Assembly (NCBI GenBank): GCA_965153355.1
Contig: OZ231126.1
Span: 36,828,001 to 36,892,000 of the forward strand
Length of the DNA stretch: 64,000 nt
Source of the DNA: Flaccisagitta enflata
Taxonomy: Eukaryota
Direction of reading: 5' to 3'
The translations under genes were made by a program, and so were the position numbers. The notes beneath the pieces are model-generated. The model did no database searches and was not told the DNA's origin. It worked only from the letters and a program-made list of their open reading frames with translations. The stretch's first letter is position 1. Each line of letters begins with the position of its first letter. This document shows positions 3,575-60,590 of this stretch, one piece after another.

Positions 3575-4043
<469 letters not shown>

Positions 4044-7334: not shown

Positions 7335-7398
7335 TTTGTTGCTGGACGCCGTGGTAAACATATACTGCATACAGGTATGTGTACTTGAATGCGTACAG

Positions 7399-7402
<4 letters not shown>

Positions 7403-7480
<78 letters not shown>

Positions 7481-7505
7481 AGTGTGTGTGTGTGTGTGCG
7501 TGTGT

Positions 7506-7592
<87 letters not shown>
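7403..7592. repeat. (GT)n-(GA)n microsatellite
   Basis: Direct reading. Confidence 0.98.
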
Positions 7593-7594
<2 letters not shown>

Positions 7595-8139
7595 GCTAAA
7601 GGCTCTCACTGCATCATCCGTAGTATATTATATATCATATTATATGCTATATAGTATGGTAGAAATAAAATTTGATTATGTTTGCTTGATTTTTATTATT
7701 CAACTTCTTTATCTTTCAAACACAGATTCGACTCAACAGCAGAAGAAAGGTGGAAAACCTGCATAAAGGTCTGCTGGTGGCTAACATGGTAGCGTACATC
7801 GCGGCGACGTCGTTGCGGCAACGGCGGTTATAATGGAGCCGCCAACAATATATTCAGACTGGCTTTGAATAACTTGCGATGTATTTGATTATTTTGAAAA
7901 TTTTAACACTATTCTGGTTTTTTTCTAATGAATCATCATTAAGATATTCTCATTTTTTTTTCTTGTCACAAAAGAATAAATAAATACTGACAGATTATTT
8001 CGTCCTGAGTGTGACGAAAGAACTTATCATTCAAGCATGTCAATGTGCTGTGTATGTGGAGAGAAGTGCCTTTGATAAGCGTCTGAATAGTTTGCAGTCA
8101 TAAATGGTAGGAGAGTCTGTTCAGGGAACTGTACACAGT

Positions 8140-9214: not shown

Positions 9215-12200
9215 TTAAGCAAAAATGAGAGTTTTTATAGTGAATTTTTCTCAAATTTCAGGTATTTTTGGAGGATTTTAGGGTATTTTCATTTTGTTTA
9301 CATGTTTATATGCTAGTCTAACAAAAAAAATTAACAAACAAGCTGAAAATTACAAATCTGATACTAGCAAGATACTCTTATAAGGGGGGAGACAATAACC
9401 CGAGTCTAAAATATAAAGGGATTTTTTAGGATTTTCAAAGTCGCATCACGACTGTAAAAATGCAAGCACCTGGCTGATTTTTGGTATATACCCTCCTTGA
9501 CTATTGTACTTTGATAAAAAAAAAAATTAGGGGCTGAAATGCCTCCAAAGGAACCAGTTTACCACCCACACCTACCACCACATCCTCGATTATGACCTTT
9601 TTAGGGCTCAACAACCAAAAATCTAACTTCAATACGTTGAAAAAATGAATTTTCCTGGGGTGTCCTGTACTTGGGTAGTGCTCATTGGATGTCTCTGAAG
9701 GGATTTAGGCTAAAAAAATCAAAATCCATGAATTTGTTTTCTCACAATATTGTCCACAAGCAAACTCCACCTATTTTTGACTAATTTGCTTTTTTAATTC
9801 ATCCTACCAAATTTGAGGTCTTTACACCCTTATCCATCCATCTCAGTCCAAAAATCATTTTGATCTATCCCTAAGCATTTCATCTTAGGGGCCTACTAAA
9901 ACCTAACCACCCTACTATACCTCTGGGCTCACAATAACATCTTTTGTTTAGTAGTTCCTACCCTGTGACGAGAAGAGGTCGCAAGGGGTGTTGTCTCCCG
10001 CCTATTAGCTAAAAATAGCCTCACATTTTTTCAAAAACTATTCTGGAACAATAAAAAACTGAAAAAATGAGACTTTGGAATAGTGAAAAACCAAATCAGG
10101 GCCATTTAGTAGGTATATCATAGCCTACACAAGTCAGAAATAGTTTGAAAAACACTCATTTTGACCTTATTTGGCGATAGTCCATTTTAAGCAAATGAGT
10201 TTTATAGTGAATTTTCCTATAAATTTCAGGTATTTTATATTTTGGTATTTTCATTTTGTTTACATGTTTGCTAGTCTAACAAAAAAATTAACAAACAAGC
10301 TGAAAATTACAAATCTGATACTAAGCAAGAACTCAATAAGGGGGAGACAATAACCTGAGTCTAAAATATAAAGGGATTTTTAGGATTTTCAAAGTCGCAT
10401 CACGACTGTAAAAATGCAAGCACCTGGCTGATTTTTGGTATATACCCTCCTTGACTATTGTACTTTGATAAGAAAAAAAAATTAGGGGCTGAAATGCCTC
10501 CAAAGGAACTAGTTTACCACCCATGCCACCTACCACCACATCCTCACATGACCGTTTTAGGCTCAGTCAAACCAAAAAATCTAACTTCAATATGTTAAAA
10601 GAATTTTCCTGGGGTAATTTTACTTGGGCAGCTCACTGATGTCTCTGGCTGGATTTAGGTTATGCAAACAAAATCCATGAATTTGTTTTCTCACAATATT
10701 GTCCACAAGCAAACTCCAACTATTTTTGACTAATTTGCTTTTTTAATTCATCCTTCCCAAATTTGAGGTCTTTACACCCTTATCCATCCATCTCAGTCCA
10801 AAATCATTTTGATCTATCCCTAAGCATTTCATCTTAGGGGCCTACTAAAACCTAACCACCCTACTATACCTCTGAGTTCACAATAACATCTTTTGTTTAG
10901 TAGTTCCTACCCTGTGACGAGAAGAGGTCGCAAGAGGGTGTTGTCTCCCATGATTAGAGGGGGGCACCTCACATTTTTTCAAAAACTATTCTGGAACAAT
11001 AAAAAACTGAAAAAATGAGACTTTGGAATAGTGAAAAACCTAATCAGGGCCATTTAGTAGGTATATCATAGCCTACACAAGTCAGACACAGCTTGAAAAA
11101 CACTCATTTTGACCTTATTTGGCTATAGTCCATTTTAAGCAAAAATGAGAGTTTTTATAGTGAATTTTTCTCAAATTTCAGGTATTTTTGGAGGATTTTA
11201 GGGTATTTTCATTTTGTTTACATGTTTATATGCTAGTCTAACAAAAAAATTAACAAACAAGCTGAAATTTACAAATCTGATACTAGCAAGATACTCTTAT
11301 AAGGGGGGAGACAATAACCCGAGTCTAAAATATAAAGGGATTTTTTAGGATTTTCAAAGTCGCATCACGACTGTAAAAATGCAAGCACCTGGCTGATTTT
11401 TTGTATATACCCTCCTTGACTATTGTACACTTTGATAAGAAAATTAAATGAAATGCCTCCAAAGGAACTACGCTCCAGTACTGCATCTAGCACTCCCCAT
11501 GAGTAACTCATTTTAGTGCCCAACAACCAAAAACTAATCTCAATATGTTGAAAATGAATTTCCTTGGGGTGTCCAATGGGTAGTGCTCATTGGATGTCTC
11601 TGAAGGGATTTAGGCTAAAAAATCAAAATCCATGAGTTTGTTTTCTCACAATATTGTCCACAAGCAAACTCCACCTATTTTTGACTAATTTGCTTTTTTA
11701 AATCATCCTGCCCAAATTTGAGGTCTTTACACCCTTATCCATCCATCTCAGTCCAAAAATCATTTTGATCTATCCCTAAGCATTTTATCTTAGGGGCCTA
11801 ATAAAACCTAACCACCCTACTATACCTCTGGGCTCACAATAACATCTTTTGTTTAGTAGTTCCTACCCTGTGACGAGAAGAGGTCGCAAGGGGTGTTGTC
11901 TCCCGCCTATTAGAGGGGGGCACCTCACATTTTTTCAAAAACTATTCTGGAACAATAAAAACTGAAAAAATGAAACTTTGGAATAGTGAAAAACCAAATC
12001 AGGGCCATTTAGTAGGTATATCATAGCCTTCACAAGTCAGAAATAGCTTGAAAAACACTCATTTTGACCTAATTTGGCGATAGTCCATTTTAAGCAAAAA
12101 TGAGAGTTTTTATAGTGGATTTTTCTCAAATTTCAGGTATTTTTGGAGGATTTTAGGGTATTTTCATCTTGTTTACACGTTTATATGCTAATCTAACAAA

Positions 12201-15200
12201 AAAATTGACAAACAAGCTGAAAATTACAAATCTGATACTAGCAAGATACTCTTATAAGGGGGGAGACAATAAACCGAGTCTAAAATATAAAGGGATTTTT
12301 TAGGATTTTCAAAGTCATCACGACTGTAAAAATGCAAGCACCTGGCTGATTTTTGGTATATACCCTCCTTGACTATTGTACTTTGATAAGAAAAAAAAAT
12401 TAGGGGCTGAAATGCCTCCAAAGGAACCAGTTTACCACCCACACCTACCACCACATCCTCGATTATGACCTTTTTAGGGCTCAACAACCAAAAATCTAAC
12501 TTCAATATGTTGAAAAAATGAATTTTCCTGGGGTGTCCTGTACTTGGGTAGTGCTCATTGGATGTCTCTGAAGGGATTTAGGCTAAAAAAATCAAAATCC
12601 ATGAGTTTGTTTTCTCCCAATATTGTCCACAAGCAAACTCCACCTATTTTTGACTAATTTGCTTTTTTAATTCATCCTACCCAAATTTGAGGTCTTTACA
12701 CCCTTATCCATCCATCTCAGTCCAAAAATCATTTTGATCTATCCCTAAGCATTTTATCTTAGGGGCCTACTAAAACCTAACCACCCTACTATACCTCTGG
12801 GCTCACAATAACATCTTTGGTTTAGTAGTTCCTACCCTGTGACGAGAAGAGGTCGCAGGTGTTGTCTCCGCCTTATTAGAGGGGGGCACCTCACATTTTT
12901 TCAAAACTATTCTGGAACAATAAAAAACTGAAAAAATGAGACTTTGGAATAGTGAAAACCAAATCAGGGCCATTTAGTAGGTATATCATAGCCTACACAA
13001 GTCAGAAATAGCTTGAAAAACACTCATTTTGACCTTATTTGGCGATAGTCCATTTTAAGCAAAAATGAGAGTTTTTTAGTGAATTTTTCTCAAATTTCAG
13101 GTATTTTTGGAGGATTTTAGGGTATTTTCATCTTGTTTACATGTTTATATGCTAATCTAACAAAAAAAATTGACAAACAAGCTGAAAATTACAAATCTGA
13201 TACTAGCAAGATACTCTTATAAGGGGGGAGACAATAACCCGAGTCTAAAATATAAAGGGATTTTTTAGGATTTTCAAAGTCGCATCACGACTGTAAAAAT
13301 GCAAGCACCTGGCTGATTTTTGGTATATACCCTCCTTGACTATTGTACTTTGATAAGAAAAAAAAATTAGGGGCTGAAATGCCTCCAAAGGAACCAGTTT
13401 ACCACCCACACCTACCACCACATCCTCGATTATGACCTTTTTAGGGCTCAACAACCAAAAATCTAACTTCAATATGTTGAAAAAATGAATTTTCCTGGGG
13501 TGTCCTGTACTTGGGTAGTGCTCATTGGATGTCTCTGAAGGGATTTAGGCTAAAAAAATCAAAATCCATGAGTTTGTTTTCTCACAATATTGTCCACAAG
13601 CAAACTCCACCTATTTTTGACTAATTTGCTTTTTTAAATCATCCTGCCCAAATTTGAGGTCTTTACACCCTTATCCATCCATCTCAGTCCAAAAATCATT
13701 TTGATCTATCCCTAAGCATTTTATCTTAGGGGCCTAATAAAACCTAACCACCCTACTATACCTCTGGGCTCACAATAACATCTTTTGTTTAGTAGTTCCT
13801 ACCCTGTGACGAGAAGAGGTCGCAAGGGGTGTTGTCTCCCGCCTTATTAGAGGGGCACCTCACATTTTTTCAAAAACTATTCTGGAACAATAAAAAACTG
13901 AAAAAATGAGACTTTGGAATAGTAAAAAACCAAATCAGGGCCATTTAGTAGGTATGTCATAGCCTACACAAGTCAGAAATAGCTTGAAAAACACTCATTT
14001 TGACCTTATTTGGCGATAGTCCATTTTAAGCAAAAATGAGAGTTTTTTTAGTGGATTTTTCTCAAATTTCAGGTATTTTTTGAGGATTTTAGGGTATTTT
14101 CATCTTGTTTACATGTTTATATGCTAATCTAACAAAAAAATTGACAAACAAGCTGAAAATTACAAATCTGATACTAGCAAGATACTCTTATAGGGGGGAG
14201 ACAATAACCCGAGTCTAAAATATAAAGGGATTTTTAGGATTTTCAAAGTCGCATCACGACTGTAAAAATGCAAGCACCTGGCTGATTTTGGTATATACCC
14301 TCCTTGACTATTGTACTTTGATAAGAAAAAAAAATTAGGGGCTGAAATGCCTCCAAAGGAACCAGTTTACCACCCACACCTACCACCACATCCTCGATTA
14401 TGACCTTTTTAGGGCTCAACAACCAAAAATCTAACTTCAATACGTTGAAAAAATGAATTTTCCTGGGGTGTCCTGTACTTGGGTAGTGCTCATTGGATGT
14501 CTCTGAAGGGATTTAGGCTAAAAAAATCAAAATCCATGAGTTTGTTTTCTCACAATATTGTCCACAAGCAAACTCCACCTATTTTTGACTAATTTGCTTT
14601 TTTAAATCATCCTGCCCAAATTTGAGGTCTTTACACCCTTATCCATCCATCTCAGTCCAAAAATCTTGATCTATCCCTAAGCATTTTATCTTAGGGGCCT
14701 ACTAAAACCTAACCACCCTACTATACCTCTGGGCTCACAATAACATCTTTTGTTTAGTAGTTCCTACCCTGTGACGAGAAGAGGTCGCAAGGGGTGTTGT
14801 CTCCCGCCTTATTAGAGGGGGGCACCTCACATTTTTTCAAAAACTATTCTGGAACAATAAAAAACTGAAAAAATGAGACTTTGGAATAGTGAAAAACCAA
14901 ATCAGGGCCATTTAGTAGGTATATCATAGCCTACACAAGTCAGAAATAGCTTGAAAAACACTCATTTTGACCACATTTGGCGATAGTCCATTTTAAGCAA
15001 AAATGAGAGTTTTTATAGTGGATTTTTCTCAAATTTCAGGTATTTTTGGAGGATTTTAGGGTATTTTCATCTTGTTTACATGTTTATATGCTAATCTAAC
15101 AAAAAAATTGACAAACAAGCTGAAAATTACAAATCTGATACTAGCAAGATACTCTTATAAGGGGGGAGACAATAACCCGAGTCTAAAATATAAAGGGATT

Positions 15201-17398
15201 TTCTAGGATTTTCAAAGTCGCATCACGACTGTAAAAATGCAAGCACCTGGCTGATTTTTGGTATATACCCTCCTTGACTATTGTACTTTGATAAGAAAAA
15301 AAGATTAGGGGCTGAAATGCCTCCAAAGGAACCAGTTTACCACCCACACCTACCACCACATCCTCGATTATGACCTTTTTAGGGCTCAACAACCAAAAAT
15401 CTAACTTCAATACGTTGAAAAAATGAATTTTCCTGGGGTGTCCTGTACTTGGGTAGTGCTCATTGGATGTCTCTGAAGGGATTTAGGCTAAAAAAATCAA
15501 AATCCATGAGTTTGTTTTCTCACAATATTGTCCACAAGCAAACTCCACCTATTTTTGACTAATTTGCTTTTTTAAATCATCCTGCCCAAATTTGAGGTCT
15601 TTACACCTTATCCATCCATCTCAGTCCAAAAATCATTTTGATCTATCCCTAAGCATTTTATCTTAGGGGCCTACTAAAACCCAACCACCCTACTATACCT
15701 CTGGGCTCACAATAACATCTTTTGTTTAGTAGTTCCTACCCTGTGACGAGAAGAGGTCAAAGGTGTTGTCTCCGCTATTATTAGAGGGGGCACCTCACAT
15801 TTTTTCAAAAACTATTCTGGAACAATAAAAAACTGAAAAAATGAGACTTTGGAATAGTAAAAAACCAAATCAGGGCCATTTAGTAGGTATGTCATAGCCT
15901 ACACAAGTCAGAAATAGCTTGAAAAACACTCATTTTGACCTTATTTGGCGATAGTCCATTTTAAGCAAAAATGAGGGTTTTTATAGTGGATTTTTCTCAA
16001 ATTTCAGGTATTTTTGGAGGATTTTAGGGTATTTTCATCTTGTTTACATGTTTATATGCTAATCTAACAAAAAAATTGACAAACAAGCTGAAAATTACAA
16101 ATCTGATACTAGCAAGATACTCTTATAAGGGGGGAGACAATAACCCGAGTCTAAAATATAAAGGGATTTTTTAGATTTTCAAAGTCGCATCACGACTGTA
16201 AAAATGCAAGCACCTGGCTGATTTTTGGTATATACCCTCCTTGACTATTGTACTTTGATAAGAAAAAAAGATTAGGGGCTGAAATGCCTCCAAAGGAACC
16301 AGTTTACCACCCACACCTACCACCACATCCTCGTTATGACCTTTTAGGGCTCAACAACCAAAAATCTAACTTCAATATGTTGAAAAAATGAATTTTCCCG
16401 GGGTGTCCTGTACTTGGGTAGTGCTCATTGGATGTCTCTGAAGGGATTTAGGCTAAAAAATCAAAATCCATGAGTTTGTTTTCTCCCAATATTGTCCACA
16501 AGCAAACTCCACCTATTTTTGACTAATTTGCTTTTTTAAATCATCCTGCCCAAATTTGAGGTCTTTACACCCTTATCCATCCATCTCAGTCCAAAATCAT
16601 TTTGATCTATCCCTAAGCATTTTATCTTAGGGGCCTACTAAAACCTAACCACCCTACTATACCTCTGGGCTCACAATAACATCTTTGTTTAGTAGTTCCT
16701 ACCCTGTGACGAGAAGAGGTCGCAAGGGGTGTTGTCTCCCGCCTTATTAGAGGGGGGCAACTCACATTTTTTCAAAAACTATTCTGGAACAATAAAAAAC
16801 TGAAAAATGAGACTTTGGAATAGTGAAAAACCAAATCAGCCATTTAGTAGGTATATCATAGCCTACATAAGTCTGAAATAGTTTGAGTGCCACTCATTTT
16901 GACCTTATTTGACGATAGTCCATTTTAAGCAAAAATGAGAGTTTTTATAGTGAATTTTTCTCAAATTTCAGGTATTTTTTGAGGATTTTAGGGTATTTTC
17001 ATTTTGTTTACATGTTTATATGCTAGTCTAACAAAAAAAATTAACAAACAAGCTGAAAATTACAAATCTGATACTAGCAAGATACTCTTATAAGGGGGGA
17101 GACAACAACCCGAGTCTAAAATATAAAGGGATTTTTTAGATTTTCAAAGTCGAGATCACGCACTGTAAAATGCAAGCACTCATTGATTTTTGCATATACC
17201 CCCTTGACTATTGTACTTTGATAAGAAAAAATTAGGCTGAAAATGCCCTCCAGAAGGGAACCAGTTTACCACCCACACCTACCACCACATCCTCGCTTAT
17301 GACCGTTTAGGCCTAACAACCAAAAATCTATCTCAATATGTTGAAAAAATGAATTTTCCTGGGGGTGTCCTGTAATGGTAGTGCTCATTGGATGTCTC
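9215..17398. repeat. Satellite array, about 8.5 tandem monomers of ~950-970 bp
   Basis: The monomer landmark (ccttatttggcgatag and variants) recurs at about 10165, 11113, 12068, 13033, 14004, 14971, 15939 and 16903. Confidence 0.97.
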
Positions 17399-18461: not shown

Positions 18462-18798
18462 TTATAAATTGTGTTTGTAGTAATAACCCTATCAATAAGT
18501 CATCACCGTTCATAATCTTTATTTTCTGGCCTCGTAGCCAGCTTTTATGTCGCGTACTCCGTCGGTCTGTTGGCCCGTTCGTCCTTCCGTAATGCTCTAC
18601 GCAAAAAGTGTGAATCCCTCTGCTAAAGCAGGGTCGAGTCAATTCATTCAAGTCTAACGCAAACGAACATAAAACTCCGCATAAAACTGGCAAAAACCAA
18701 AGAGTGAGGAAGACTAGCTGGAGGAAAGGTAGAGCGAGGTTTAGAAGGAGGGGAGCGAAGAGGGGAGATAGAAAGTCTGAGGGAGGTTTGGAATTGGA

Positions 18799-19807
<1,009 letters not shown>

Positions 19808-20126
19808 AAGATGATCAAAAGTAATCGATAGTCTCATTTCAGTTTGGTATCCATGTTGACAGCTTAAACATACTTTGCCCATCTACAAAAAGCTCATCCT
19901 GCTCATCTGCTCATTCTTAGACTGACTTATCCTCACCTTTTGCATTTCCGTTCACCCGCATGATTCGCTCCAAGGCCCTATTAAGCATCTCGGCGCTCAA
20001 AAGATGATGACAAAGACCATCGGATTGTCATGTTACTCAGCTGTTTTATGGCCCCAAATCCTTTTATTAAATACAGCTCGGCTCGGCACATGCAAATTGA
20101 ATTCGTGAAGGTTGATTAACTCACGT

Positions 20127-21035
20127 TATAAGTTACGCCCACGAGTTTCAACTGGCACTGTCTATGAGCGTCTATCTGACTGACGACTTGTGGTGAAAGA
20201 AAGTTGGCCGATTGGAAAATAGGAAGGCGATCGTCTCGTTTATTCCATAAAAAATTTCAACAACTGAAGAGAGGGGGAAAAATGAAAGGGAAAGTGGGCG
20301 TTAATTGTGATCAGCAAACGCAAAAGATAACATGAAATCGAGATAGGACACAATAAAGGACAGAAACAGCACATGACAACATGTTCATCTTCTTCAGAGC
20401 CCATGCCACCTGATAATACCTGCCCCTGCCCCGGCCCATCCCATTAAATTCATCCATATCATCCCTATAGCAAGCTGATCGGGCAAGCGATAAAAACCAT
20501 ACTAAAATCCGGCGATAAAAATGCAAAAGGGCAAAAGACAAAAATAACAGACTGAGGACAAAATAAAAAACGATAATAAAAGCAAACACGCGTCTATAAA
20601 ACTTACTTTTAGGCTCACTGTTGGTTTCAACCTACAGTCTGTCGGGTCAAATTAACGTTAATTGTCCTTCGTTCATTAGTTTATTCTGCAAAAAGAGAGA
20701 TTATTGAAATTAGTGAATTCCAAGGGCGCATTCAAACGATCACAAAAATCAATCAATCACTTTAATAAGCAATGCCGCAAATAAATAAAATCAATCAATC
20801 CAAAATTGATGATACGAAGACGAGATACGTATGTTCGCTACGTAATAAAAAAAAAAAAAAACAAATGGCAAAAAAATACAAGGCGCAAACCATATGGTTA
20901 CCCATCTAGCGTTCAATATAAAAATGGCGAGAAACAAAAGACGCGGCATTGAATGATCGAAGAAGAGAAAAAGCCAAAAGCACGCAAAAGAGACAAAAGC
21001 ACACATACCTAAAAAACGGACGGACATTTCTAACA
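20127..21035 (-). repeat. 3' LTR of the BEL/Pao element
   Basis: Begins TGTTAGAAATG on the minus strand at 21035 and ends ...AACTTATA abutting the TSD. Aligns with 32364-33273. Confidence 0.95.
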
Positions 21036-21050
21036 TTCTGCCCCATTTTT
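21036..21050 (-). promoter_or_regulatory. Polypurine tract (PPT)
   Basis: Minus-strand aaaaatggggcagaa lies immediately before the TG of the 3' LTR. Confidence 0.75.
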
Positions 21051-21192
21051 GGAATTTCACGAATTTCAAAAATCCGACATCTAGTTTCCAGTCGGGGAAA
21101 CCCTACTAAAAAACCGATACTACCTTCCTTAAAAAAAAAAATTTACATAGACACAAACCCCCGCCCCTCCCCCCCCGTCCACCGCCTCTTAC

Positions 21193-24182
21193 ATCCCCAC
21201 CCTAACTATCAACAGATCGACGACTGCACGAATGATGATTCCCGTCCGGAAAGGATCCACCACCAGCAATTTGCAACGATCAATGACGATGCGGATGGAG
21301 ACGAGGTGGCGACGAGGAGGTTGAGGCGCCCGTTCCTGTGTTAAAGGGAAGGGGGAAAGGGAACGGGCCTAGGAGCACCCAAGCCTGGGATTTGACTTGG
21401 AGGTGGAAAATATAAGTGGGGGCATACTACTAAAAACATGTCATACGAAAGTATTCGTAATAATGACTAAAAAGACCATGTCTAAAACAAACACAACAAA
21501 TTTACATGTTCCAAGGAACCAAACAAAACAAGACAAAATAAATAAGTTACTAACTATATATAAAAACGAATCTGTAAGGTAAAAACAAATTAGTAAGCAT
21601 CATGGAACGACCACATCACCTGCGCCTTCTCCATTACAGAGACGAGCGGATCATTCCGGAAGCTCCAACACCTCGTCAATCCGTGGGCGAAAGGCGATAA
21701 ATGATGTCGTCAACGGCGACCGCATCGAAAGGCGCAGGTGGTGCAGCCGTCTGAGAATGTATCCTCCCCGAAGGGAAGAAAAGGAAAGAGAAAAATGGGG
21801 GCAGATTGATTAGTAATGTTCTTAATGTACACAGATTCAAATTTACAACAAAAACTCAACCTCAACCCTTCCCAAACCATGAAACTTACGCGGGCTGCCA
21901 CAGGCCCCGCGGACGTCATTCCCATCCCAGGCGCCCGACTTGGCCTGCCTGTCCATCGATGGGATGAGGATGCGAAGGTGGAATACTACCCTCAGCGAAT
22001 GGCGGCGCTCTCCACGCCATGTTGCAAATTGGTAGTTAAGTTGAACAGCAACTGGGCGTGGCACCAATCAGCGTTTAGCTGGCGGTCTGATTTTTCCAAG
22101 GCCTGGTTCGATTTTTCTTATTCCCAGGCTTGGGAGCGCTTATGACGTGGGATCTGCTGACCGACTTTTTCTTGCCAAGAAGTTACCCAGGAGGTGGAGA
22201 TGCTGCACGCACTGCGCCAGTCGAAATTTCTTGACGACAGCGGACGCAGAAGTTTTAAAGTCGCACGGCCATAGTCGGCTTTGCGCTGCTCCACCGCTTT
22301 CCTTCTTCTTTCTTAGCCTTCATCAGACAGGCCTGCTTCCTTTTCAAGCTTAAGTCCCCAGTTCCACGACTCGCTTATTGCCTTTGACCACCTCATTGTC
22401 CGCAGCCATTGCTGCTCGACGAGCATCGTCTCTCTCCTTTTTGATGTTAATTATGATCACAACTCTCTCTTGCCTAAGACTTGACGAGCCGCTTCAACCC
22501 GTTGACGCGGCGGAAGCGACGCTAAGAAGTCTTTTGGAAGCCTTGATGCTAAATTCTTCACCACCCCCAATGGAGCATTTGAGGTCAGTGAAGAGGTTCT
22601 CGTAGCAATGACTCGGCGATGTGGTGTCCATGCGCAGGATCAAAGGCTGGATCCGACGGGGGAGGCGGGTTCTGCACTTGCTGCAGACCTTGGGCAGACT
22701 CGGTTTGCTGACGAGGCGCTACACCAGCTTTAACAGATGCTGAAGCACCGCCAACTAGTTCGCTTCCTACCGCGGCTTTTGATGGCTGCGAGTGAAAGGA
22801 AGACGCTCCCGTCTGCTGACCATAGACTTGAGGTTTAACAGCGGACGCCGAAGCACCGCAAGTAGAACCTCCCTTGGTTGCTGCTTTGTGCTTCTTCCCA
22901 GCTCTCTTGGTCTTCTTCCCCTTTGCTGCCGCTGCCCCAGGCGCCTGATCCAGCTTCTGGGTTGCTGCCAACGTTGCCGTCGACGAACCGCTTGAAGCTT
23001 CTCCTTGGCCTTTGGGCATTACTGCTGCAGGGGGCGCGCCTGGAGGCGCTTGAAGGGGGCCTTTGCTTTTGGAATTTGGCCCTTTTTGTTGACTCGGCAC
23101 ATTGCGCGTTTGTGGAGTCTTTCCCCGACGTGATCTCTTCGACTTTTGTGAGGGAGTGATGTCACGAGGACCCTGTTGCTGCTGATTTGGGGGATGAACC
23201 AATCCAGGGCGCGATTGACGACTTCCTGATGCTGTAGAGTGAATTGCCGCTGATGTAGCTGCGGCTGCGTCGAGCACGAATACCGCTGGTGGAGTTGCGG
23301 AAGCGTCGACAGCAGTTGCACCAGGAGGCTTCGGAGCCGCATTCTTCCTCTTCGTCGCCTGGACCATGCGACGAACCTCCTTATCATGCTCCCTCCTTCT
23401 CTTATTGCTTTGGATTTTGCGCTCCAGAGTCTCCGAGCCAAGCTCTGTTTGATTAGCCGATGAGCGCATGAGAGTTTGTTTGTTGCAGCATACCGAAAGT
23501 TTTTCAAACTCTTTGAAGAGGAGAGATACTCCGACGTCGGGCTGATGATACGATACCACCAACGCGCCTGCATCCGTTGGTGCTTCTCTTCCGGCCGCAG
23601 TGTCCACTTCCGTCAATGTCTTCTCCACTGCCTCCCTCCCCATTCACTAACACCTCCTCTCTGTTTCCATCCTCCTCCTCCACTCTTGCTCCATCATTGA
23701 CCGACCTCTCTCTTCGCCCCCGTATGCTGGACGTGCAGCTGCAGACGCTGATCACGAGACGCTGCGACCAAATCAAGGCAAAATTGGCGAGGCGATGGGG
23801 GCAAATCCGATGATGATGACGCCGCCGCGGAAGTGGTGAATAAGTCCGTCGGCGGCCGATTGATCGAGATCCGCCTCGAACCTCCATCTCTGATGACCAC
23901 CAATGGAGGAAGCGACGCGGGATCAACGGCGTTGGATGGCTGTTGACGATTTACCAACGCATCATCTTGTTGACGCTTTTTATTCGCCATTTTTGCGTCT
24001 ACGACAGAACGAAGGTCGCCATTGAAGGCTGCCAACGCGACAGCCTCCTCCTCCGCCCCGAACGACGTCGTGGATGCAGATCCCTCTCGAGTCGAGCCGT
24101 CGTTGAAGAGTCGATGAAGATCCAAGGATCCGTACGACGTCGACACGTCGGCTTCTGCCTCGAGACGCTGCTGACGGGACAT
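21193..24182 (-). CDS. Accessory gene (ORF2) of the retrotransposon, sense orientation, probably spliced; low-complexity, basic and coiled-coil-like product of unknown function
   Basis: GC-rich coding-like sequence from an ATG at 24182 through ORF pieces 23694-24206 and 22585-23643, continuing with frameshifts and stops to 21890. Candidate introns are 21889-21751 (GTAAGT...TTCTCAG) and 21619-21336 (GTGATG...pyrimidine tract..ACACAG), with a further donor GTAAGA at 21192. Confidence 0.55.
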
Positions 24183-24531
24183 CTTGACTTCGACGAGCGA
24201 CTTCAAGATGCGAACTGACTGTCAGATGGAATGACGTCGTCAGCGGAAGCTTTGAAATGTTCGTATTGAGAGAACTGATAAAGGTAAGAACGGATTTGGC
24301 ACAATAATATGTACATATAGACAGAGCGAATGAATCAGTGTTTTGATGTGTAAGTGGAAATGGACAACATAATTGACAAGAGGAAAGATGAAAGCATGGA
24401 TAATCAGAACCAAATATGAATAATAACAACTCTTTGTAAATATAACAAGTCAGAGTATCAATCACTCATATCTATAGTTACTAATGGACAGGCCCATGCG
24501 CCTTTTTCTCTCTCTCAAAACTTAGCGTTTT

Positions 24532-27500
24532 TTATGAGTCCAATTCCAGCCGCACAAGCTTCATGCGGCCCTCGTCACGATCTTTCCATCTTGGCGCCGG
24601 ATGTGAGCCCTCCGGACATGGGCTGACGAACCCTCGACGCCATGACACGTCCTAAGCTCCACCAGTGACGAGGTAGCGTTTCGTCCATGACGATGACCAT
24701 GTCATCAACCGCAAAGTCTCTCTCGGATCTCGACCATTTGCTTCGCGCATGAAGAAGCGACAAATATTCGACCCTCCACGACTTCCAAAATGCATCCACA
24801 CGCGATTGCGCACGCCTCCATTGAATCTTCGCGGAGTCGGCGTCAGAATTGACGCCTTGTTGCACCAGATCCAGAGGGGCATGGCCGGATGTTGATGGAT
24901 TGAGGATATGATTCGGTGTAAGGGCCTCAGAGTCATTTGGATCATCGCTGAGCGCTGTTAGAGGACGGCGATTGAGAATTCCTTCAACTTCGACGACGGC
25001 AGTGTTGAAGGCGTCGACGTGGAGGATGGCGCCAGTCGAGATGGAAGCAAGATGGCGCTTAAAGAGAGCGACGACTCTCCCACACCCTCCATAGTGCTCC
25101 GATAAAATCCCACCGGCGTCGCCGCTGAATTCGGGAGGAGACGAGCGGTTCCAAGCTTCCATTTCCTTCTTGAGGATGTTGTTGGCGCGACTAGATTCGT
25201 TCCACAATCTGATGTGAAACGGCGGATTCCTGTCGCCTTGCTGCAAAGCGGATGATTGCATTTACCATCGCATCGGCTGACATGTTGAAGAGCAATTCCA
25301 CATGGACGGCGCGTGACACGAAACAGGTGAACACTGCGATCCACACCTTGTGATCAGCACGCCCGTTCATTTTTACCATGAAATGCCCCATGACGTCCAA
25401 TCCAGTCTCTGCAAAGACAGGCGCCGGATTGACGCTATGTGATGGAAGATTGGCCATTTGCTGATTTGCTTCTTTTTAAAGTTCTTCTGGCATCTAGCAC
25501 GTGTTGACGACGCTCTTGACGGCCTGAAGACCTTTGTAATCTACACAAATTGGCGTAATTGGCACAATGTATGCTTTGCACCCGCGTGAAAATCATTATG
25601 ATGATAATGGCGAATTAATGATTTCACATTCTCGTCTTTTGGCGGCAGGATGAAGGGAAATTTAGCGTCGTGAGAGATGTCGGCATTCTCCAATCGACTG
25701 CCGACGCGAAGGATGCCGTCGTCGTCGACGAAAGGGTTCAGCTTCCGCATCTCCTTGTTCTTTATGATAAAGTCACGACTGCTTTCTGGCTTGAAGACTT
25801 TTCCCAATTCCAATTGTTCAAGACGTCAACACTGTTGCCGCTGCATTGACTTGACGAGCTGTTTGCGCGCTCTCCTCCACGACGCCTTGCGTCACTTCCG
25901 GTTTGGGAAGGAGATCTTTTGTTGCTCGTGTTTCGCCCTTGGATACGTCTCCACCTTTGACTGCGATGAGAACCATGCCGATAATCCGCACTTTGCATCC
26001 ATTTTCCCGAGAAGCTGTTGTGAAGAAGCATCGCGCCAGCCACTTGTTTCTTTTCACTCTCAGCCGCATACAGAGCGGCGACTTGTGCAGAAATAGGGCA
26101 CGTCGCGATGTTCGTCTTTGGACATTGATCTTCGGGAAGACGCAAAAATGCAGGACCGTGATGGAATTGACACCATTTTTCGGCTTCATGGGCCTGGATG
26201 CCTCTGCTACAGTGGTCCGCCGGGTTGTTTGACGAGTCAACCCAGCGCCACTGTTGAGGATCAGACCCACTGTGGATCTTGGAGAGACGATTGGCGAAGA
26301 ATACAGGCCTCGGTTTTGCCGGATTGTAAATCATCTTCAGTGCAGATTCAGAATCAGACCAAAATCTGACGACTAGATTGTCCAAGTTGATGGTCCTTCC
26401 GACTTGCGTTTGAGCTGCACTGCTTTTTCTGCGGATACAACTCGACACGTGGAACGCTGTTGTGATGAGAAGACGTTTTGATTGAGATGACGTGAGATTT
26501 GGAGGCAAGGAATGAAATGTGAACATCTCCATCTCGATTGACTTGACGTCGATATGCAACTGCTCCATATCCGCCTTTTGGAGCTGCATCGCAAAATAAC
26601 TCGATTGTGACTTCCGCAATGTCGCTATTGTCGACGCCGCCATTCCACCAGCGTTCAATTCGATATTGTTGTAGAAGAGGCCAAGATGAAGTATAGCGGA
26701 AGAAAGATTCCTCGACGCTCTCTTCCAAGGGCGAATCCCATCCCACTTCCTGTGGACGACAGAGTTGAAGATGTCGTCTACCGATGTATGCGCTTGGGCT
26801 CCAAAAACCCAATGGATCGTAAAGTTTCGCTTGCATAGAGACCAATTGACGAGGTGTTTTTGCTCTAAGAGTTTTGAATTCTTCGTCGCAGATGAAAATA
26901 AAGACGTCTTCCGCCGGAAGCCATGAGACGCCCAACACCTTCGTCGGCGCATCATCTTGCTTATCTGAAATGGGAATTGGCACATTTGGATCTCCATCCA
27001 TCAATTGCCGCGCATTGCTTTTCCACTTCACAAGATCCATCCCGCCTTCAGCCATCGCCGCCACTGAATCCACCTTTAGTTGCAGTGCTTCGTCGACCGA
27101 ATCCCCACCCCCACTTCCGTCGTCGACGTAAAAACCATAGCGAATAAGATCGTAGACGTTGTAGGGATATTTGGGCCGGATTACTTCAGCATGCTTTCTG
27201 ACGGTGAAAGACGTGACGAATGAGCTGGATTGGCTACCGAAGACATGTGATAAGAACAGATTCAAAATGGCTTCTCGTAGAGTACGGTCTTTGAACCAAA
27301 AGAATCTGAACAGATCAGCGTCGTCAGGATGGACGCGGATCTGGTGGAAGAACGCCTTTATGTCACACATAAAGGCGATCTTCCACTGACGAAAACGCAT
27401 GAGGATGTCCATTAAGCTATTCATCAAATTTGGACCTCCGACGAGCAAATCATTGAGTGAGATCCCGTCGGTCGCCGCACGCGCATCGTGACATACGCGC

Positions 27501-30500
27501 GTTTTTCCGCGCAGTTCAACAATATGAAGCGGTAAGTACCAGCGCGGTTTCTCAATGCCGTCGTCGTCGTCGACGTTATCAATCTCAATCGCCACTCCCG
27601 TCTCGTAAAACTTCTCGATTTCACGGAAGACTCTTTCTTTGAAGGCTGGATCACGCTTGAAGCGAAAACGTTGATTACCGAGTCGCTTCATCGCAGTTGG
27701 TCGTGATTTCACTCTTCTCAGAATCTCCATGATTTTCTCGTGATGAAATTTCCACGTGACGGGAGCAAAGTACTTTTTCACAATTGGGCAAAAATATGTC
27801 TTTTCCTCTAACGTTTTGCACGCTCTGACATTTTCAAGGGAATCACCCATCTCCTCTTGCGAGACGATTGACGATGCAAAGTCATGGTAGAAGATGCGGT
27901 CAATGTTGCTGTTGAGGACGCGATTGTCGAGGATGCGATCGATATTATCGTTGAGGACGCGGTCATCCGTCGCGATAGCGTTGATCGACGCAATATCTCG
28001 TCCTCTCTTGCCCGTTTTTCCACATACAGTCCAACCGAACAGACATCTGAAGCAAGTCAAAGATCCTGAAGGCCCTCGACGGATTTCTTGAGCGACGGCG
28101 GCATCCGCATGCGCCGCTCCGATGATCATCATCACACCGCCTTCAGCTTCTGGAAATTTTATGCCTTCGATGTGAGGTTGGTCAGATAGGTCGCGGAGAA
28201 AAGGAGGAATGTCGCGTTCACTCGTTAACAAATCACCCACCAATGCGTCGTTGATGTCGACGACATATTCTTCGTCGACCGATTGCATAGTGAATGATGC
28301 GATGAAACGATCCTCAACAACATGACTTCCCACAGTAATCACCGTCATTTGCACTGTTTTTGTTGGAATCAGAAGACTGCGAATGACATTGGTACTGATC
28401 ACGTCGCGATCAGCGCCTGAGTCGATCATAGCGTAAATCGTCCTCTGCGCACCCGAAGAATTGTTTATGATAGTCACTGGAACAATCGGACGGACAACGT
28501 CGAATGAAGAGACGGACCGCGACGTTGCCGTCGCCGCCAGTCATGCCGTGACGTTAGAAGAGATCACCTCCGTAGGATTGGCTGCCTCCGCCGTCGACGG
28601 AGCTGTTGGTGCTGCTGCAGCCGCATCCTCTGACTTTTTGAAGGGAGCCAGCGGTACTTTATTTCCCTGCTTATTTTCCTTTCTTCTCTTCCTTTTCTTC
28701 TTTTCTTATAGGTGCGCCCGTGAGAATCGTTGCGTGCCGCTTCTTGCAGGTTTGGCAAGTCGGTCTGTTCGCGCATCCTTGGCGTTGTGTCCTGCGCGAG
28801 ACAGTGGAAGCAAAGACGACGAGACATGATCTTTTTGACTCTCGCGTCAACTTCCAACTCTAACAGCTGATGACATTCTTCTGTCTGATGCATTCCACTG
28901 CAGACGTTGCAGCGGTCCGTCGACTGCGTCTTTTGCTTGCCATTGGTCAAAGCATCTTCATATGATGATGGCGCTTCTTTCTCTGTAGTTGCGACTGCTG
29001 CCACTGATGCTGTTTTGCAGCTTGCGCCTTTGTTGCGCTGAATCACCGCCCATGTCTCGATCATATTGACCAAGTTGTCGAATGAAAATAATTGTCCATT
29101 TTGGGCTGCTTCATGTTGCTTTTCCCAGAATTTATCTGCAAGATGAGGGACCCTCTTGTTGAGGATCTCCTGCAGCAGCTCGTCACGATAGCATTGTTGC
29201 ACTTCTCCACAGGTCCTCGCAATCTTCTTTGCCTTTTGCAACCTTGCAGACAAATTGAAATGCCTTGCATGGTCGGCCGACTGGATCTTCGCCTCCGCGA
29301 CGATTTCGTTGAACAGCGCCGCAATGTTGCAGCGCCTCGCCATGAAGACGACGTCCATTTTTGCAAAGGCGTCGTCAATTTCTCCTCTTGCTGTCGCTTC
29401 AGTTGCATCAATCGTCGCAGTTTCTATGATCTCTTTTGCCGGACCAGCAAACCACTTAGGCAATTCCAATAAGATGTCCATTTGCGTCAAGCCCTCATGC
29501 TTCTCAGCATCTTTGAACTTCCTCTTCCACATCATAAAGTCGGTGGATGAAAGCTCCTGCAGAGGCTTCTCAGGTCTTGCTCTCTCCAACGCTTTGAGGC
29601 CGACCTCCCTTGCTCGCATGAGATCATTGTACGTCGCTCTTTCCAAAAACCTGTCCAGAGCTGGATTGTTGGGCATCTGAACATGGACTTCCGGTTGACG
29701 GGCTACTTGATGATGCTCCACTTGATGATACGCTGGGGGTTGTTGGATGAAGGCATATTGACCCCCGACTTTTACCGGAGATCTCTTTTTGGTGGTTTTT
29801 ACACTCCACCCAACTTCCTCTTGCTGATTCACTTGTTGTTGACGATCATCTTGATGGAATCTGGGAGCATCAAAATCTTGGCGGACGTACTGTCGCTGTT
29901 GTTGTTCTTCTTTTGTTCCTCTTCTGCTCGCTGCGGCAAGGTCAAAGTCTCTCTGCTGAATCTGCATCTTCAAACTATCCACTTCTTGGCAAAACGTTGA
30001 TTCTGCTGGATGACTTCATTGAGGCGTCGTTAGAGGCGCTTGCGCTACTTTCGGCGCCTTTGGCTGCAATCCACTCGTTGTCTTCTTGGGAGCGACTTTT
30101 CTTCTTTCTTTATCTTGCAGCTGCTGGGCCAACTTCGCGTCAGCGGCCTCTTGCTTCTGCCTCCTGCGCATTGCCTCCGTCGCATCACCTCCGCTTCCGG
30201 CTGTGTTGAAGACCTTTTCCTCTTGATGGGGAAGACCAGTCTCCCTTCTAGCAGAACCAATCTGCTTCTCGAAGATCACTTCCGGTGCGGTAGGGAGAAT
30301 CGTTGCTGCTGGGGTTTGATGATGCTGATCCTGATGCTGTTGCTGTTGTTGAAGCCGTTGCTGCTGCCACTGTTGATGTCGAAGCTGCTGTTGCTGGTCA
30401 GGACGCTGTTGCTGTTCATTCTGCTGCTGCAGTTGACGCTGGCGCTGTCCTTGCTGCTGCTGCTCCAACTGTTGCTGCTGCTGCATCGGCTGCTTGACGG

Positions 30501-32300
30501 ACGTTTCCACTGACTGCACATGACGCTGCTGTATGTTCGGATTGAACAATCCCGGATTGAAATTTCTGAAGATAGATCGACGGTCTTTTGGCGGATGCTG
30601 CGGCTGCTGCTGGTCCAGCTCAGACAGTTGTCTAAGCTTCACATCCCGCTGCTCTAAAGCTCCACCAATGCCGCCGTCGTTCAGGCTATTCCAGTGCTTT
30701 CGTTGCATTTCTGCCGCATTGTTGAATACTCCTGCTCTTCTATCTTCATCTCGTTGCTGCTGCTGGCGAAAGTTACACATTCTGTCATATAACTCTTTGT
30801 CTTCTTGTGATGAGCTTCGCTGTTGGAATCCCAATGGCACCGCGATCGGCGCCTTTGGAGCTGTTGCTGCACCACCACCTTCACCTTCAGCCATCATGCG
30901 CAGACGTTGATCTGCAAGGCGTTGCTGTCTCTCTTCTTCTGTCTCCTCACTGACGTTCATGCTTTCGACAAGATGGTTGTTTGAAGCTGGAGGATCCACT
31001 ACCACCGCTGGGATTGCGGCGGAAGGTTGCTGTTGCTGCTGCTGTTGCTGTTGCGTATTTTCTCCTGCATCGTTTTGCCGCTGTTGTTGTTGTTCGTGCG
31101 GCTGCATTGCCGTTTGTCGCAGCTCTTGTTGTTGTTGCTGTTGTTGCTGCTGTTGATCTTGTTGTTGTTGTTGTTGAGCGCCGGCTGCAGGATCTTGTTG
31201 ACAAAATTGTTGGAGTTGCTGCAACTGCTGCTGCTGCAACAGCTCTTGCCGCTGCCGTTGAGCCGCCGCTTTGCTGCTGCTCCTGTGGTCGGTGGAGTTG
31301 ACGCTGTTGGAGTTGCTGCTGCTGCATCTGCAATTGATGCTGCTGCTGTTGCTCCTGTTGCTGTCGCTGCTCCTCCTCCCGTTGTTGCTGCTGCATATCG
31401 TCAATCAGCCGACGGCCTTGTCGCATTTCCTCCTCCAACTGCCTGCCCCATCTGTCTCTCTCAGCACTCTTGCTGACTAAGCTGCCGCTCGCCCTCTCCT
31501 GCGGCGTCAATCCGTTGATGATCCCGCGGCCTCTTGCATGAGCGCCGGGCGTCGTCGAGATCCGCAAGCATGCCGTCAGCTTGCTCCATCGGAGACGCAC
31601 GCGCAGGTTCAATTTCCGAGACCAAATCTGATACCCATTGATTGACGGCATCTCCTCTTTGGATCGGCGGCAGATTTAAAATTGGCCGCCAGTTGGAGAT
31701 TGCGCACCATGTCGCGGGACCGGAAGTGGTAGATACTCGGATCTGTCGGGGTTTGGCGAAGACGTTCGCATCCTTGGAGTCGGAGCGCCGGTAACATTGT
31801 CACGGGCGGCGTGGGTGTCTGCTGGGAGACTGTTCCATGAGAATTCATTGACGGGTCTTTTGCGATTCCCAATGTCATTATGCACTGCGTTCACAATGTC
31901 GGCGCAGAAGGAAAACCCTCTGATAGTTTTCACGATCAAAGAAACGCATAGAGTCCCATTCGCGCCGGATTCGACGCAAAGAAGACGCCGCGAATCGAAG
32001 AGGGTCGCCGGGCATCGAGTCGAGCGCCATTTGCCTTGCATACGATATAAAGTCGAGACCATATCCCGAAGGCCGTGCCGAGCGCCATCCGATTCACAGG
32101 CGGCGTCGTCGAAGTCGTTCTCCTTCGGTGCAAGTAGAAACGGCGCCGAAAAGGCGCCGGCATCCTTCCATTTCCGCAGTGATGTCGTTCCTCATTGCGC
32201 GCAAACGATTCGACCTCGGACACTGATTCAAACCGAAGTGAGATACACGAGATGACGTTGAAGCAGTCGAGACGGTGTCGTCGCTACGCGCGGCTGCCAT
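24532..32300 (-). CDS. BEL/Pao gag-pol polyprotein (frameshifted in this assembly)
   Basis: ATG at 32300; Q-rich Gag; Cys/His knuckles CNVCSGMHQTEEC and CFHCL; protease AMIDSGAD; RT DIKAFFHQI, HVFG, YVDDG; RNase H FCDAA, LASKSHV, PRVEL, WSDS; integrase GLDVMG and EVEGILNRRPLT; C-terminal W..EYL..L and KLVRLELDS stop at 24532. Confidence 0.93.
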
Positions 32301-32363
32301 TGTCCAATTTCGCTTTCGGAGGTCGAAGATGAAAAGAATCGAGTCGTTTTTAAATTGTTGAAA

Positions 32364-33273
32364 TATAAGTTACGCCCACGAGTTTCAACTGGCACTGTCT
32401 ATGAGCGTCTATCTGACTGACGACTTGTGGTGAAAGAAAGTTGGCCGATTGGAAAATAGGAAGGCGATCGTCTCGTTTATTCCATAAAAATTTCAACAAC
32501 TGAAGAGAGGGGGAAAAATGAAAGGAAAAGTGGGCGTTAATTGTGATCAGCAAACGCAAAAGATAACATGAAATCGAGATAGGACACAATAAAGGACAGA
32601 AACAGCACATGACAACATGTTCATCTTCTCAGAGCCCATGCCACCTGATAATACCTGCCCCTGCCCCGGCCCATCCTATTAATTCATCCATATCATCCCT
32701 ATAGCAAGCTGATCGGGCAAGCGATAAAACCATACTAAAATCCGGCGATAAAAATGCAAAAGGGCAAAAGACAAAATAACAGACCGGAGGACAAAATAAA
32801 AACAACGATAATAAAAGCAAACACGCGTCTATAAAACTTACTTTTAGGCCCACTTTCGTTGGTTTCAACCCACAGTCTGTCGAAGTCAAATTAACGTTAA
32901 TTGTCCGTTCATTAGTTTATCTGCAATAAAAAGATGAGAGATTATTGAAATTAGTGAATTCCAAGGGCGCATTCAAACGATCACAAAAAATCAATCAATC
33001 ACTTTAAGAAGCAATGCCGCAAATAAATAAAATCAATCAATCCAAAAATTGGATGATACGAAAGACGAGATACGTATGTTCGCCTACGTAATAAAAACAA
33101 ATGGCACAAAATACAAGGCGCAACCATATGGTTACCCATCTAGCGTTCAATATAAAAAATGGCGAGAAACAAAAGACGCGGCATTGAATGATCGAAGAAG
33201 AGAAAAAGCCAAAAGCACGCAAAAGAGACAAAAGCACACATACCTAAAGACGGACGGACATACATTTCTAACA
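32364..33273 (-). repeat. 5' LTR of the BEL/Pao element (may extend to 32356 if the true end is ...TTTCAACA)
   Basis: Direct repeat of 20127-21035. Contains an Inr-like TCAGTT (A at 32501) and a minus-strand AATAAA at 32481-32476. Confidence 0.93.
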
Positions 33274-33431
33274 CACGTGGATGGTCTTTTGACCTGGATC
33301 ACCGACGATCGACCTATCAGTGACAGCTCAGCGGCAGATCAGCGGCAGATCACCGGCAGTTTATAGGAAGATCAATGGCAGATCAAGGAAAGATCATGGG
33401 CAGATCAAGGGAAGATCATCGCCAGATTCTA

Positions 33432-35462: not shown

Positions 35463-35819
35463 GGAAGCAAACAAAGAAACAAAGAATTAATGCAAAAGAA
35501 AAGAAAACGGCAAAAATATTGTTAGAAAGTCAAAGACGTGAAAGGAGCATTTTTGGGTGTTTAAGTAGTTTTAAGTCATTTCAAGCCATTTTGGGACATT
35601 TCCTGTAATTTTTGGTCATTTGACATCATTTTTGGTATGTTTTGGTCATTTATGTCATTTTGTTCATTTTGATCATTTAACTCATTTTTGTCTTTTCTTA
35701 TTTCTTGTCATAATAGGTCTTCTTTGGATATTATGGGTCACTTTGGGTCATTGTAGGTCATTTTAGGTCATCTTGAGTCGTCATGGGTCCGGGCTGGGGA
35801 CTCCATCTTTTGTCATTTT

Positions 35820-36865
35820 TTGGTCTGCTATAAGTCTGCTTTAAGTCTGGTTTGAGTCTGGTTTAAGTCTTGGTTTGAGTCTGGTTTGATTTGGTTTAAG
35901 TCTGGTTTAAGTCTGGTTTAAGAATGGTCCTGGTTTAAGTCTGGATTTGAGAAAGTCTGGTTTTAAGTCTGGTTGAAGTTTGGTGCACAGGCCTGGTGTA
36001 AGCCTGCTGTAAGTCTGGTGTAAGTCTGGTTTAAGTCTGATTTAAGTCTGATTTAAGAGTTGGGATGAGTCTGGATTAAGTCTGGTTTAAGTCTGAACAA
36101 TTGTGGTGTAAGTGTGGTGTAAGTGTGGTGTAAGTGTGGTATAAGTGTGGTGTAAGTGTGGTGTAAGTGTGGTGTAGTCTGGTTTAAGTCTGGTTTGAGT
36201 GGATTAAGTCTGGTTTAAGTCTGGTTATAGTCTGGTTTGAGTCTGGTTTGAGTCTGGTTTGAGTCTGGTTTGAGTCTTGATTGAGTCCGGATGGAGTCTG
36301 GTTTGAATCTGGTTTGAGTCTTGTTTGAGTCTGGTTTGAGTCCGGCTTGAGTCTGGCTTGAGTCTGGTTTAAGTCTGGTTTGAGTCTGGTTTAAGACTGG
36401 TTTATGTCTGGTTTATGTCTGATTGATGTCTGGTTTGAGTCTGGTTTAGGTCTGGTTTTATGTCTGATTCACGTCTGATTAAGGTCTGGTTTATGTCTGG
36501 TTTAGGTCTGGTTTAGGTCTGGTTTAGGTCTGGTTTAGGTCTGGTTTAGGTCTGGTTTAGGTCTAGTTTAGGTCTGGTTTAATTCTGGTTTAATTCTGGA
36601 TTGAGTCTGGTTTTAGTCTGGTTTGAGTCTGGTTTGAACCTGGATTGAGTCTGGTTTGAGTCTGGTTTGAGTCTGGTTTGAGTCTGGTTTGAGTCTGGTT
36701 TGAACCTGGATTGAGTCTGGATTGAGTCTGGTTTGAGTATGGATTCAGTCTGGTTTGAGTCCGGTTTGAGTCTGGTTTGAGTCTGGTTTGAGTCTGGTTT
36801 GAGTCTGGTTTGAGTCTGGTTTGAGTCTGGTTTGGGTCTGGTTTGGGTCAGGTTTAAGCCTGATT
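35820..36865. repeat. 11-bp minisatellite (gagtctggttt)n with aagtgtggtgt and aggtctggttt sub-blocks
   Basis: About 90 degenerate tandem units read directly. Confidence 0.95.
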
Positions 36866-37104
36866 TTTGATAAAAAGATACAATAAGGAGTCACGTCAGT
36901 TCAGGTATTTTTGTCCTGCACGCGACTTATAGGTGTTGGCCTTGTTTTTTCTTTTCTGATTTATTTAACTATCTTAATCAAAGCAAAAAGTTACACAAGT
37001 GACTTTGTTTGATGGTTTGTTTAATGGACACCACAAATCAACGCATTACGGAAATGTGCGAATCTGCATCAATTTGCGATCGTCATTCGCAGGGGGGCAC
37101 GCTA

Positions 37105-60172: not shown

Positions 60173-60590
60173 AAATTTCCCTTGAAAATTTTTGCAAAAC
60201 TTGCTGAAAAGTATCAATTTTTGTATATATTTACATATAGATCTCAAGGATATACCAGTTTCAAAATTCTGACTGAAGATTCAAATTCCTGGTGAAATTT
60301 CCAATCATTGGTGAAATTTCCATTCATTTGATAGGTCACACTGTATACTTTTATGAAAAAATATAATTTTCATTTTTCATGCCACCGTTACAAAAAAAAC
60401 AACGGTGGCCTAAAATATGAAAATCTTATTTTTTCATGAAAGTATATAGTGTGACCTATCAAATGATTGAAGATTTCACCAGGAATGTGAATCTTGAGTC
60501 AGAATTTTGAAACTGATATATACTTGAGATCTATTTGTAAATATACAAAAAAAATTGACACTTTTTCACAATTTTTGCAAAAATTTTCAT
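60173..60590. mobile_element. Near-perfect ~410-bp foldback element
   Basis: Arms mirror around gccaccgtt-acaaaaaaaac-aacggtggc (about 60381-60409). A second copy starts at 63694. Confidence 0.8.

Follow-up and report, generated by a model that had tools for sequence, protein, structure and literature searches.

A BEL/Pao retrotransposon of Flaccisagitta enflata with a candidate Tf1-like self-priming site and no tRNA-type primer binding site

In the retrotransposon Tf1 the RNA's first 11 bases pair with the primer binding site (PBS), the transcript being cut between bases 11 and 12 (PMC7175516), a mechanism that needs perfect complementarity (PMC5445492). Self-priming has been predicted from sequence for the Tf1/sushi group, the Tcn1 chromoviruses and the TAR lineage of Ty1/copia (PMC6317226), and this kind of sequence-based inference is accepted for these lineages (PMC6317226, PMC7175516). 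In the ICTV account, the Belpaoviridae are primed by tRNA: their genomes measure 4.2-10 kb and bear a PBS of 18 nt complementary to the 3' end of tRNA-Arg or tRNA-Gly (PMC8742986). Achilles, a BEL/Pao element of the olive fruit fly, is reported with a tRNA-Tyr PBS (PMC4580426). The main text of a BEL/Pao survey does not mention primer binding, tRNA or priming (PMC3118150), and the available parts of PMC5443660, PMC5445492, PMC6317226 and PMC3601003 never ascribe self-priming to this superfamily; nor was a description of it found in a full-text search of open-access main texts. Self-priming as the mode of early LTR elements is an idea discussed in PMC3601003.

The locus described here lies in a window of 64,000 nucleotides (the whole stretch of DNA analyzed, from contig OZ231126.1 of Flaccisagitta enflata), and all positions are those of the window. 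On the minus strand, the window contains a BEL/Pao LTR retrotransposon of 13,147 bp (33273-20127), with a 5' LTR of 910 bp (32364-33273, TGTTAG...CTTATA) and a 3' LTR of 909 bp (20127-21035), each delimited by alignment with the other, and with the target-site duplication ACGTG present as an upstream copy (33274-33278) and a downstream copy (20122-20126) on the same strand. A polypurine tract (PPT), AAAAATGGGGCAGAA (21036-21050, minus strand), adjoins the 3' LTR, and the same junction is found in a contig of run X15. The two LTRs share 94% identity over 931 alignment columns (BLAST), differing by 26 substitutions and 39 gap columns, and every substitution falls in U3, predicted here as 33273-32502 (772 nt). 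The predicted R-U5 (32501-32364, 138 nt), compared between the 5' and 3' LTRs (32364-32501 vs. 20127-20265), has 0 substitutions and a single indel, a T in a T-run; an even spread of the substitutions would put about four in R-U5.

Three lines of evidence, namely the 3' LTR, the ACGTG duplication and a copy inserted elsewhere, place the end of the 5' LTR at 32364. The two LTRs stop matching at 32364 in the alignment, the duplication begins right after the 3' LTR base equivalent to it, and contig 9 of run X15, which stems from a separate insertion, follows the window from 32883 to 32364, after which come 36 letters with no relation to it. The other LTR end is confirmed by a second X15 contig, in which 33273 is joined to the complement of the PPT; the X15 contigs thus match both ends of the 5' LTR independently. 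Their cover is confined to the LTR, beyond which they pass either into another flank or into the PPT once more, and the internal part has none. The preliminary description of this DNA had placed the LTR end at the same base and advised that it be defined from other copies, and the X15 contig departs exactly there. Its reservation that the LTR might instead end in ...TTTCAACA is contradicted by the 3' LTR, the duplication and the X15 copy, and the R/U5-end hairpin that it attached to such an end is ruled out by the LTR end being fixed at 32364. Both LTRs terminate in ...CTTATA (32364-32369 and 20127-20132), giving TG...TA, where TG...CA is usual. A contig of run X18 from an expressed relative departs at 32370 into unrelated sequence, continuing with TTACA, and this relative may represent a CA-ended subfamily; another X18 contig ends at 32343.

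Pol (28441-24570, minus strand) encodes protease with a DSG motif, reverse transcriptase (RT) with a YVDD motif, RNase H, integrase and DUF5641, its frame being broken in the integrase part. Pfam matches on pol include Peptidase_A17 (2.3e-23) and DUF5641 (8e-16), as well as a weak RVT_1, and the DSG and YVDD motifs are both present in the translation. The pol proteins of nine relatives are colinear with 28441-24570 by tblastn, with the frame breaks in the integrase part, and pol relatives carry PF05380, PF17921 and PF18701. These matches, together with the motifs, uphold the assignment to BEL/Pao made in the preliminary description. The order of the pol domains (protease, RT, RNase H, integrase) is that of Pao-type elements, and LTRs, a short target-site duplication and a PPT before the 3' LTR are all present. 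With a length of 13,147 bp, the element exceeds the 4.2-10 kb given for Belpaoviridae and it has no 18-nt tRNA PBS; the missing PBS weakens its standing as a typical member and not its membership of the superfamily, because membership rests on pol. For the same region, the chromovirus type of Ty3/gypsy pol found in the Tf1/sushi clade was not recovered, pol being that of BEL/Pao.

The gag region (28541-32300, minus strand) starts from an ATG at 32300 and appears in the ORF lists as several broken frames. The approximately 3.7 kb of gag-side coding sequence had no Pfam matches; the gag of one relative, L002, has 25% identity to 29670-28798 of the window. Extra letters at 32055 and 31921 are common in other copies. 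Because of the frame breaks in gag and pol, this copy is defective. Between pol and the PPT lies a region of 3.5 kb (21051-24569, minus strand) with ORF fragments of no known family. In L006, a relative whose pol is 45% identical over the part that matches, an intact third ORF of 765 aa (L006:2510-4807) overlaps the end of pol and may be an env-like gene of the clade; similarity between this ORF and 21051-24569 of the window was not detected.

The sixteen pol relatives form a graded series of 36-96% identity, some of them on contigs of 10-14.7 kb; those at 36-76% identity represent sister families, with contigs of up to 14.7 kb in ENA assemblies. Parts of the family were also found in runs labelled marine metagenome and metatranscriptome. 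A metagenome scan with the 17-sequence pol alignment gave eight loci of 1.2-5.1 kb, none of which reaches a 5' LTR; in L002, gag is open at the contig start. In the viral contig collection, the same alignment gave no relatives among 44 pattern matches, and a 20-nt U5 pattern gave no matches. The sole genome-contig match to the U5 pattern (L009) shares 21 nt and was rejected as a chance match in a bacterial contig. Inside the window, tblastn with nine pol proteins matches this element only, with no second BEL/Pao element, and Pfam on ten other ORFs returned nothing informative. A repeat pair at 60174/63694 was considered as a second pair of LTRs and rejected, as it is not a clean LTR pair. Elsewhere in the window, a satellite with a repeat unit of some 965 bp is present in at least nine tandem copies (1-1100 and 9230-17250), and long arrays of simple repeats with periods of 11 bp and 8-10 bp (35800-36900, 3600-4080, 7380-7630 and 18700-19240) account for much of the sequence around the element.

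The PBS position, directly after the LTR, is occupied by TTTCAACAATT (32353-32363, minus strand), which contains no TGG. By the established mechanism of LTR formation, the first base of the minus-strand DNA adjoins the primer, so that the 3' end of the primer must pair 0-3 nt from the integrated LTR end, and the CCA-3' end of a tRNA requires TGG in the site. The bases after the LTR are TTTCAA; therefore, no RNA ending in CCA fits, and an intact CCA-ended tRNA cannot prime at a site beginning with TTT, TTC or TCA. Downstream of the LTR, about 57 nt pass before a TGG first appears, beside the gag ATG at 32300. As had been noted from the letters in the preliminary description, a tRNA-type PBS is thus absent, with TTTCAACAATT following the LTR. 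The 64-kb window contains no tRNA genes.

The same site is complementary to a segment inside the LTR. The candidate self-primer, AGTTGTTGAAA (32501-32491) plus a T (32490-32501 in all, minus strand), has its nt 1-11 paired with 32363-32353 by ten Watson-Crick pairs and one G-U, and nt 12 (32490) adds a twelfth pair with the last base of the LTR. The G-U lies at transcript position 2, Watson-Crick pairing being exact at nt 3-11 and at nt 1. Like elements of the Tf1 type, this one has, directly after U5, a site complementary to some 11 nt of its LTR; the perfect 11-nt complementarity of that type is lacking, owing to the G-U at position 2. When the LTR was shuffled 5000 times with its dinucleotides preserved, 16 shuffles contained pairing as good as this (11/11 and no more than one G-U, flush with the LTR end) and 75 contained an exact complement of 9 nt; the next best site in the real LTR has two mismatches. 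Among 18,024 window positions on both strands used as pseudo-junctions, 223 (1.2%) had pairing of the same quality, 71 of these being low-complexity repeats. The motif itself has four matches with at most one mismatch in the whole window, vs. 5.6 expected, two of the four being the site in the two LTRs, which are also the only such matches on the strand of the element. The frequency of the motif in the window is, then, no higher than by chance, and its location is the unusual part; the complementarity with 32501-32491 is unlikely to have arisen by chance. A second, shorter complement of the site, GTTGAAA, lies in U5 at 32389-32383.

The pairing ends exactly at the A of an initiator-like TCAGTT (32498-32503, minus strand), 20 nt upstream of the only AATAAA. 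By motif, the predicted transcript start (+1) is the A at 32501; TCAGTT is one of four TCAKTY sites in the 910-nt LTR, and no TATA box was found in the LTR. The four runs compared with the locus are made up of contigs, in which transcript starts do not show. AATAAA (32476-32481, minus strand) has a single sense-strand copy in the 5' LTR, at +21 to +26, and the predicted +1 would give a normal layout of U3, R and U5. Alignment of both borders, the LTR end on one side and the initiator A on the other, is what self-priming predicts and would be unexpected for an incidental inverted repeat. The letters and coordinates given earlier for the 11-nt match with its one G-U, flush with the LTR boundary, for TCAGTT with its A at 32501, and for AATAAA about 20 nt after the predicted +1 were all found to be correct. 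A DPE-like AGACG is present at +29 to +33, one base off the canonical DPE position, and was given no weight.

Here it is proposed that this BEL/Pao family primes its own reverse transcription in the manner of Tf1, which is the best-supported reading, drawn from one locus and held at about even confidence. Transcription would start at or near the A at 32501, in the TCAGTT initiator, and the first 11 nt of the RNA would fold back over the 138-nt R-U5 to pair with 32363-32353. The RNase H of the element would then cleave this RNA on the duplex's 3' side, following about nt 11 (± 2). Extension from the resulting 3'-OH would make minus-strand strong-stop DNA, copying U5 and what is left of R, and this DNA would be transferred to the copy of R that precedes the poly(A) site in the 3' LTR. 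We infer the start, the cut and the priming step; the anatomy and the statistics are observations on the locus. A start exactly at 32501 would not be strictly needed, because cleavage on the duplex's 3' side is what makes the end of the primer.

The G-U pair is a weak point of the proposal. If the plus strand copies the primer here, as it does in Tf1 and in tRNA-primed elements, progeny should have a perfect complement, and the G-U fits poorly. Both LTRs carry the G of this pair and it was thus already there at insertion. One of three ways out must hold: a shorter copied part (nt 3-11 being perfect), a start at 32499, or a mutation after insertion. Also counting against the proposal are a start predicted by motif in an LTR with no TATA box, a leader fold no more stable than shuffles and with a competing pairing of the 5' end, the tRNA priming that ICTV ascribes to the Belpaoviridae, and the broken frames of this copy. 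Self-priming as put forward in the preliminary description is partly supported, by the anatomy, the lack of a site usable by a CCA end, the complementarity, the initiator-like position and a plausible fold, and it is the perfect complement that fails, because of the G-U.

The same G-U, which makes the 5' end of the element something other than a perfect complement of the site, favors a primer supplied by the host. This could be a tRNA half or internal tRNA fragment, like those used by copia and the half-tRNA lineages of plants, or a small RNA ending in ...UUGAAA-3', with the match in the LTR being incidental or only structural, and half-tRNA priming does exist in Ty1/copia lineages, according to PMC6317226. 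However, a host RNA would leave the place of the complement (in the LTR, at the initiator A and upstream of the sole AATAAA) unexplained, and an Rfam search of both strands of 32100-33400 gave no tRNA-like result, its two matches (E values of 0.27 and 6.5) being far below the gathering scores. A host-derived primer is considered unlikely.

Folding of the predicted leader has a bearing on both the self-primer and a purely structural role of the helix. The 11-nt duplex alone has a free energy of -9.5 kcal/mol, and it is the minimum-free-energy structure from +1 to the PBS, with pair probabilities of 0.93-1.0, and again in the 212-nt leader, with a probability of about 0.72. In a 162-nt context the duplex is 1.7 kcal/mol above the minimum (pair probability 0.17) and in a 182-nt context 1.0 kcal/mol above it (0.38). 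A competing 7-bp pairing, of the transcript 5' end with AACGACT (32347-32341), is part of the minimum-energy fold of +1 to 32340 and of those of the 162- and 182-nt contexts, and the two pairings may be alternative conformations of the leader. An extra 5-bp helix, between nt 15-19 and the end of U5, stacks onto the duplex. The fold of +1 to 32340 has a z of -0.25, with 81 of 200 shuffles at least as stable. Under these models, the self-primer fold is plausible, and folding on its own is not evidence for the duplex.

A long-range helix between R and the sequence after U5 could also shape the leader for packaging, dimerization or control of initiation, the true primer being another one. The duplex lies at the free-energy minimum or close to it and continues into U5 by way of its twelfth pair and the stacked 5-bp helix, U5 holds the shorter complement GTTGAAA, and such a helix would resemble the U5-leader stems of retroviruses. 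Against this, a primer must anneal 0-3 nt from 32364, which is exactly the site that the helix occupies, and there is no other candidate primer site before the gag ATG, the first TGG being about 57 nt off; a role limited to structure is judged quite improbable.

Run X1 speaks to the family as a whole and not to this one copy. In its host, organism A, the abundance of the family is extreme, with 9532 contigs of this run on a stretch of 1.45 kb (window 31900-33273), and the summed depth across 32341-32389 is similar to that of neighboring bins. Among the 40 of 76 variant rows listed, none falls within 32314-32512, and, across the site, the list holds a single common variant, an extra T at 32346 (6%). 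By this coverage, the family is not a lone decayed copy, and there is a hint that the sequence at the PBS position is not a private mutation of the copy in the window. A chance match in a dead copy with a decayed PBS, for which one may cite the broken frames, the 26 substitutions and 39 gap columns between the LTRs, and the coincidences to be expected when many features are inspected, is very unlikely, given the 16 of 5000 shuffles even before the position at the initiator motif is counted, an R-U5 with no substitutions between the LTRs, the impossibility of turning TGG into TTT by one change, and the family-level depth in run X1 with its one common listed variant at the site.

More tentatively, self-priming may extend to a whole clade of marine-animal BEL/Pao elements (with a pol of about 1300 aa and, in at least one relative, L006, a third ORF), its members using their own first 11 nt; this is possible, though somewhat doubtful. 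Of the steps in the retroelement life cycle, priming belongs to the few that are regarded as the same throughout BEL/Pao, a family described by ICTV as tRNA-primed. If the proposal is true, the Tf1 mechanism reaches a third LTR superfamily and animals outside the sushi group, which bears on the idea of self-primed early LTR elements, and it would explain a very high copy number without reliance on a host tRNA. If it is clade-wide, self-priming would occur in all three LTR superfamilies, pointing either to repeated origin or to an ancestral mode replaced by the use of tRNA. A demand for a tRNA-type PBS in annotation pipelines would cause self-primed BEL/Pao elements to be overlooked or wrongly scored.

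Compared with known systems, the element shares with canonical BEL/Pao (Semotivirus, including Tas, Pao, BEL and Achilles) the domains of pol and their order, the short target duplication and the PPT, and differs from them in the lack of a tRNA PBS, the length of 13,147 bp and the LTRs ending in TA and not CA. In copia, the priming site matches an internal part of the initiator tRNA-Met. The locus resembles this half-tRNA priming in having a site after the LTR that does not start with TGG; unlike in copia, the complement sits in the LTR of the element itself. With the TAR lineage (Houba, Osr-1) and the Tcn1 clade, it has in common the kind of evidence, namely a missing tRNA PBS together with complementarity between LTR and PBS; however, the elements in question come from plants and fungi and belong to other superfamilies, and the predictions for them draw on many elements per lineage, whereas here there is one locus. 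The nearest likeness is to Tf1 and Tf2 of Schizosaccharomyces pombe and the Tf1/sushi group, in which there is likewise no tRNA-type PBS and an 11-nt site lies directly after U5. As in Tf1, this site has its complement in the transcript's first 11 nt (predicted ones here), and the fold-back would span R-U5 (138 nt here). The transcript start and the RNase H cut were demonstrated experimentally for Tf1, whereas here they are predictions from sequence; the Tf1/sushi elements are Ty3/gypsy chromoviruses, whereas pol here is that of BEL/Pao, and one of the 11 pairs is a G-U. In its testable features, the element works like Tf1, and by its pol it stands outside the Tf1/sushi clade.
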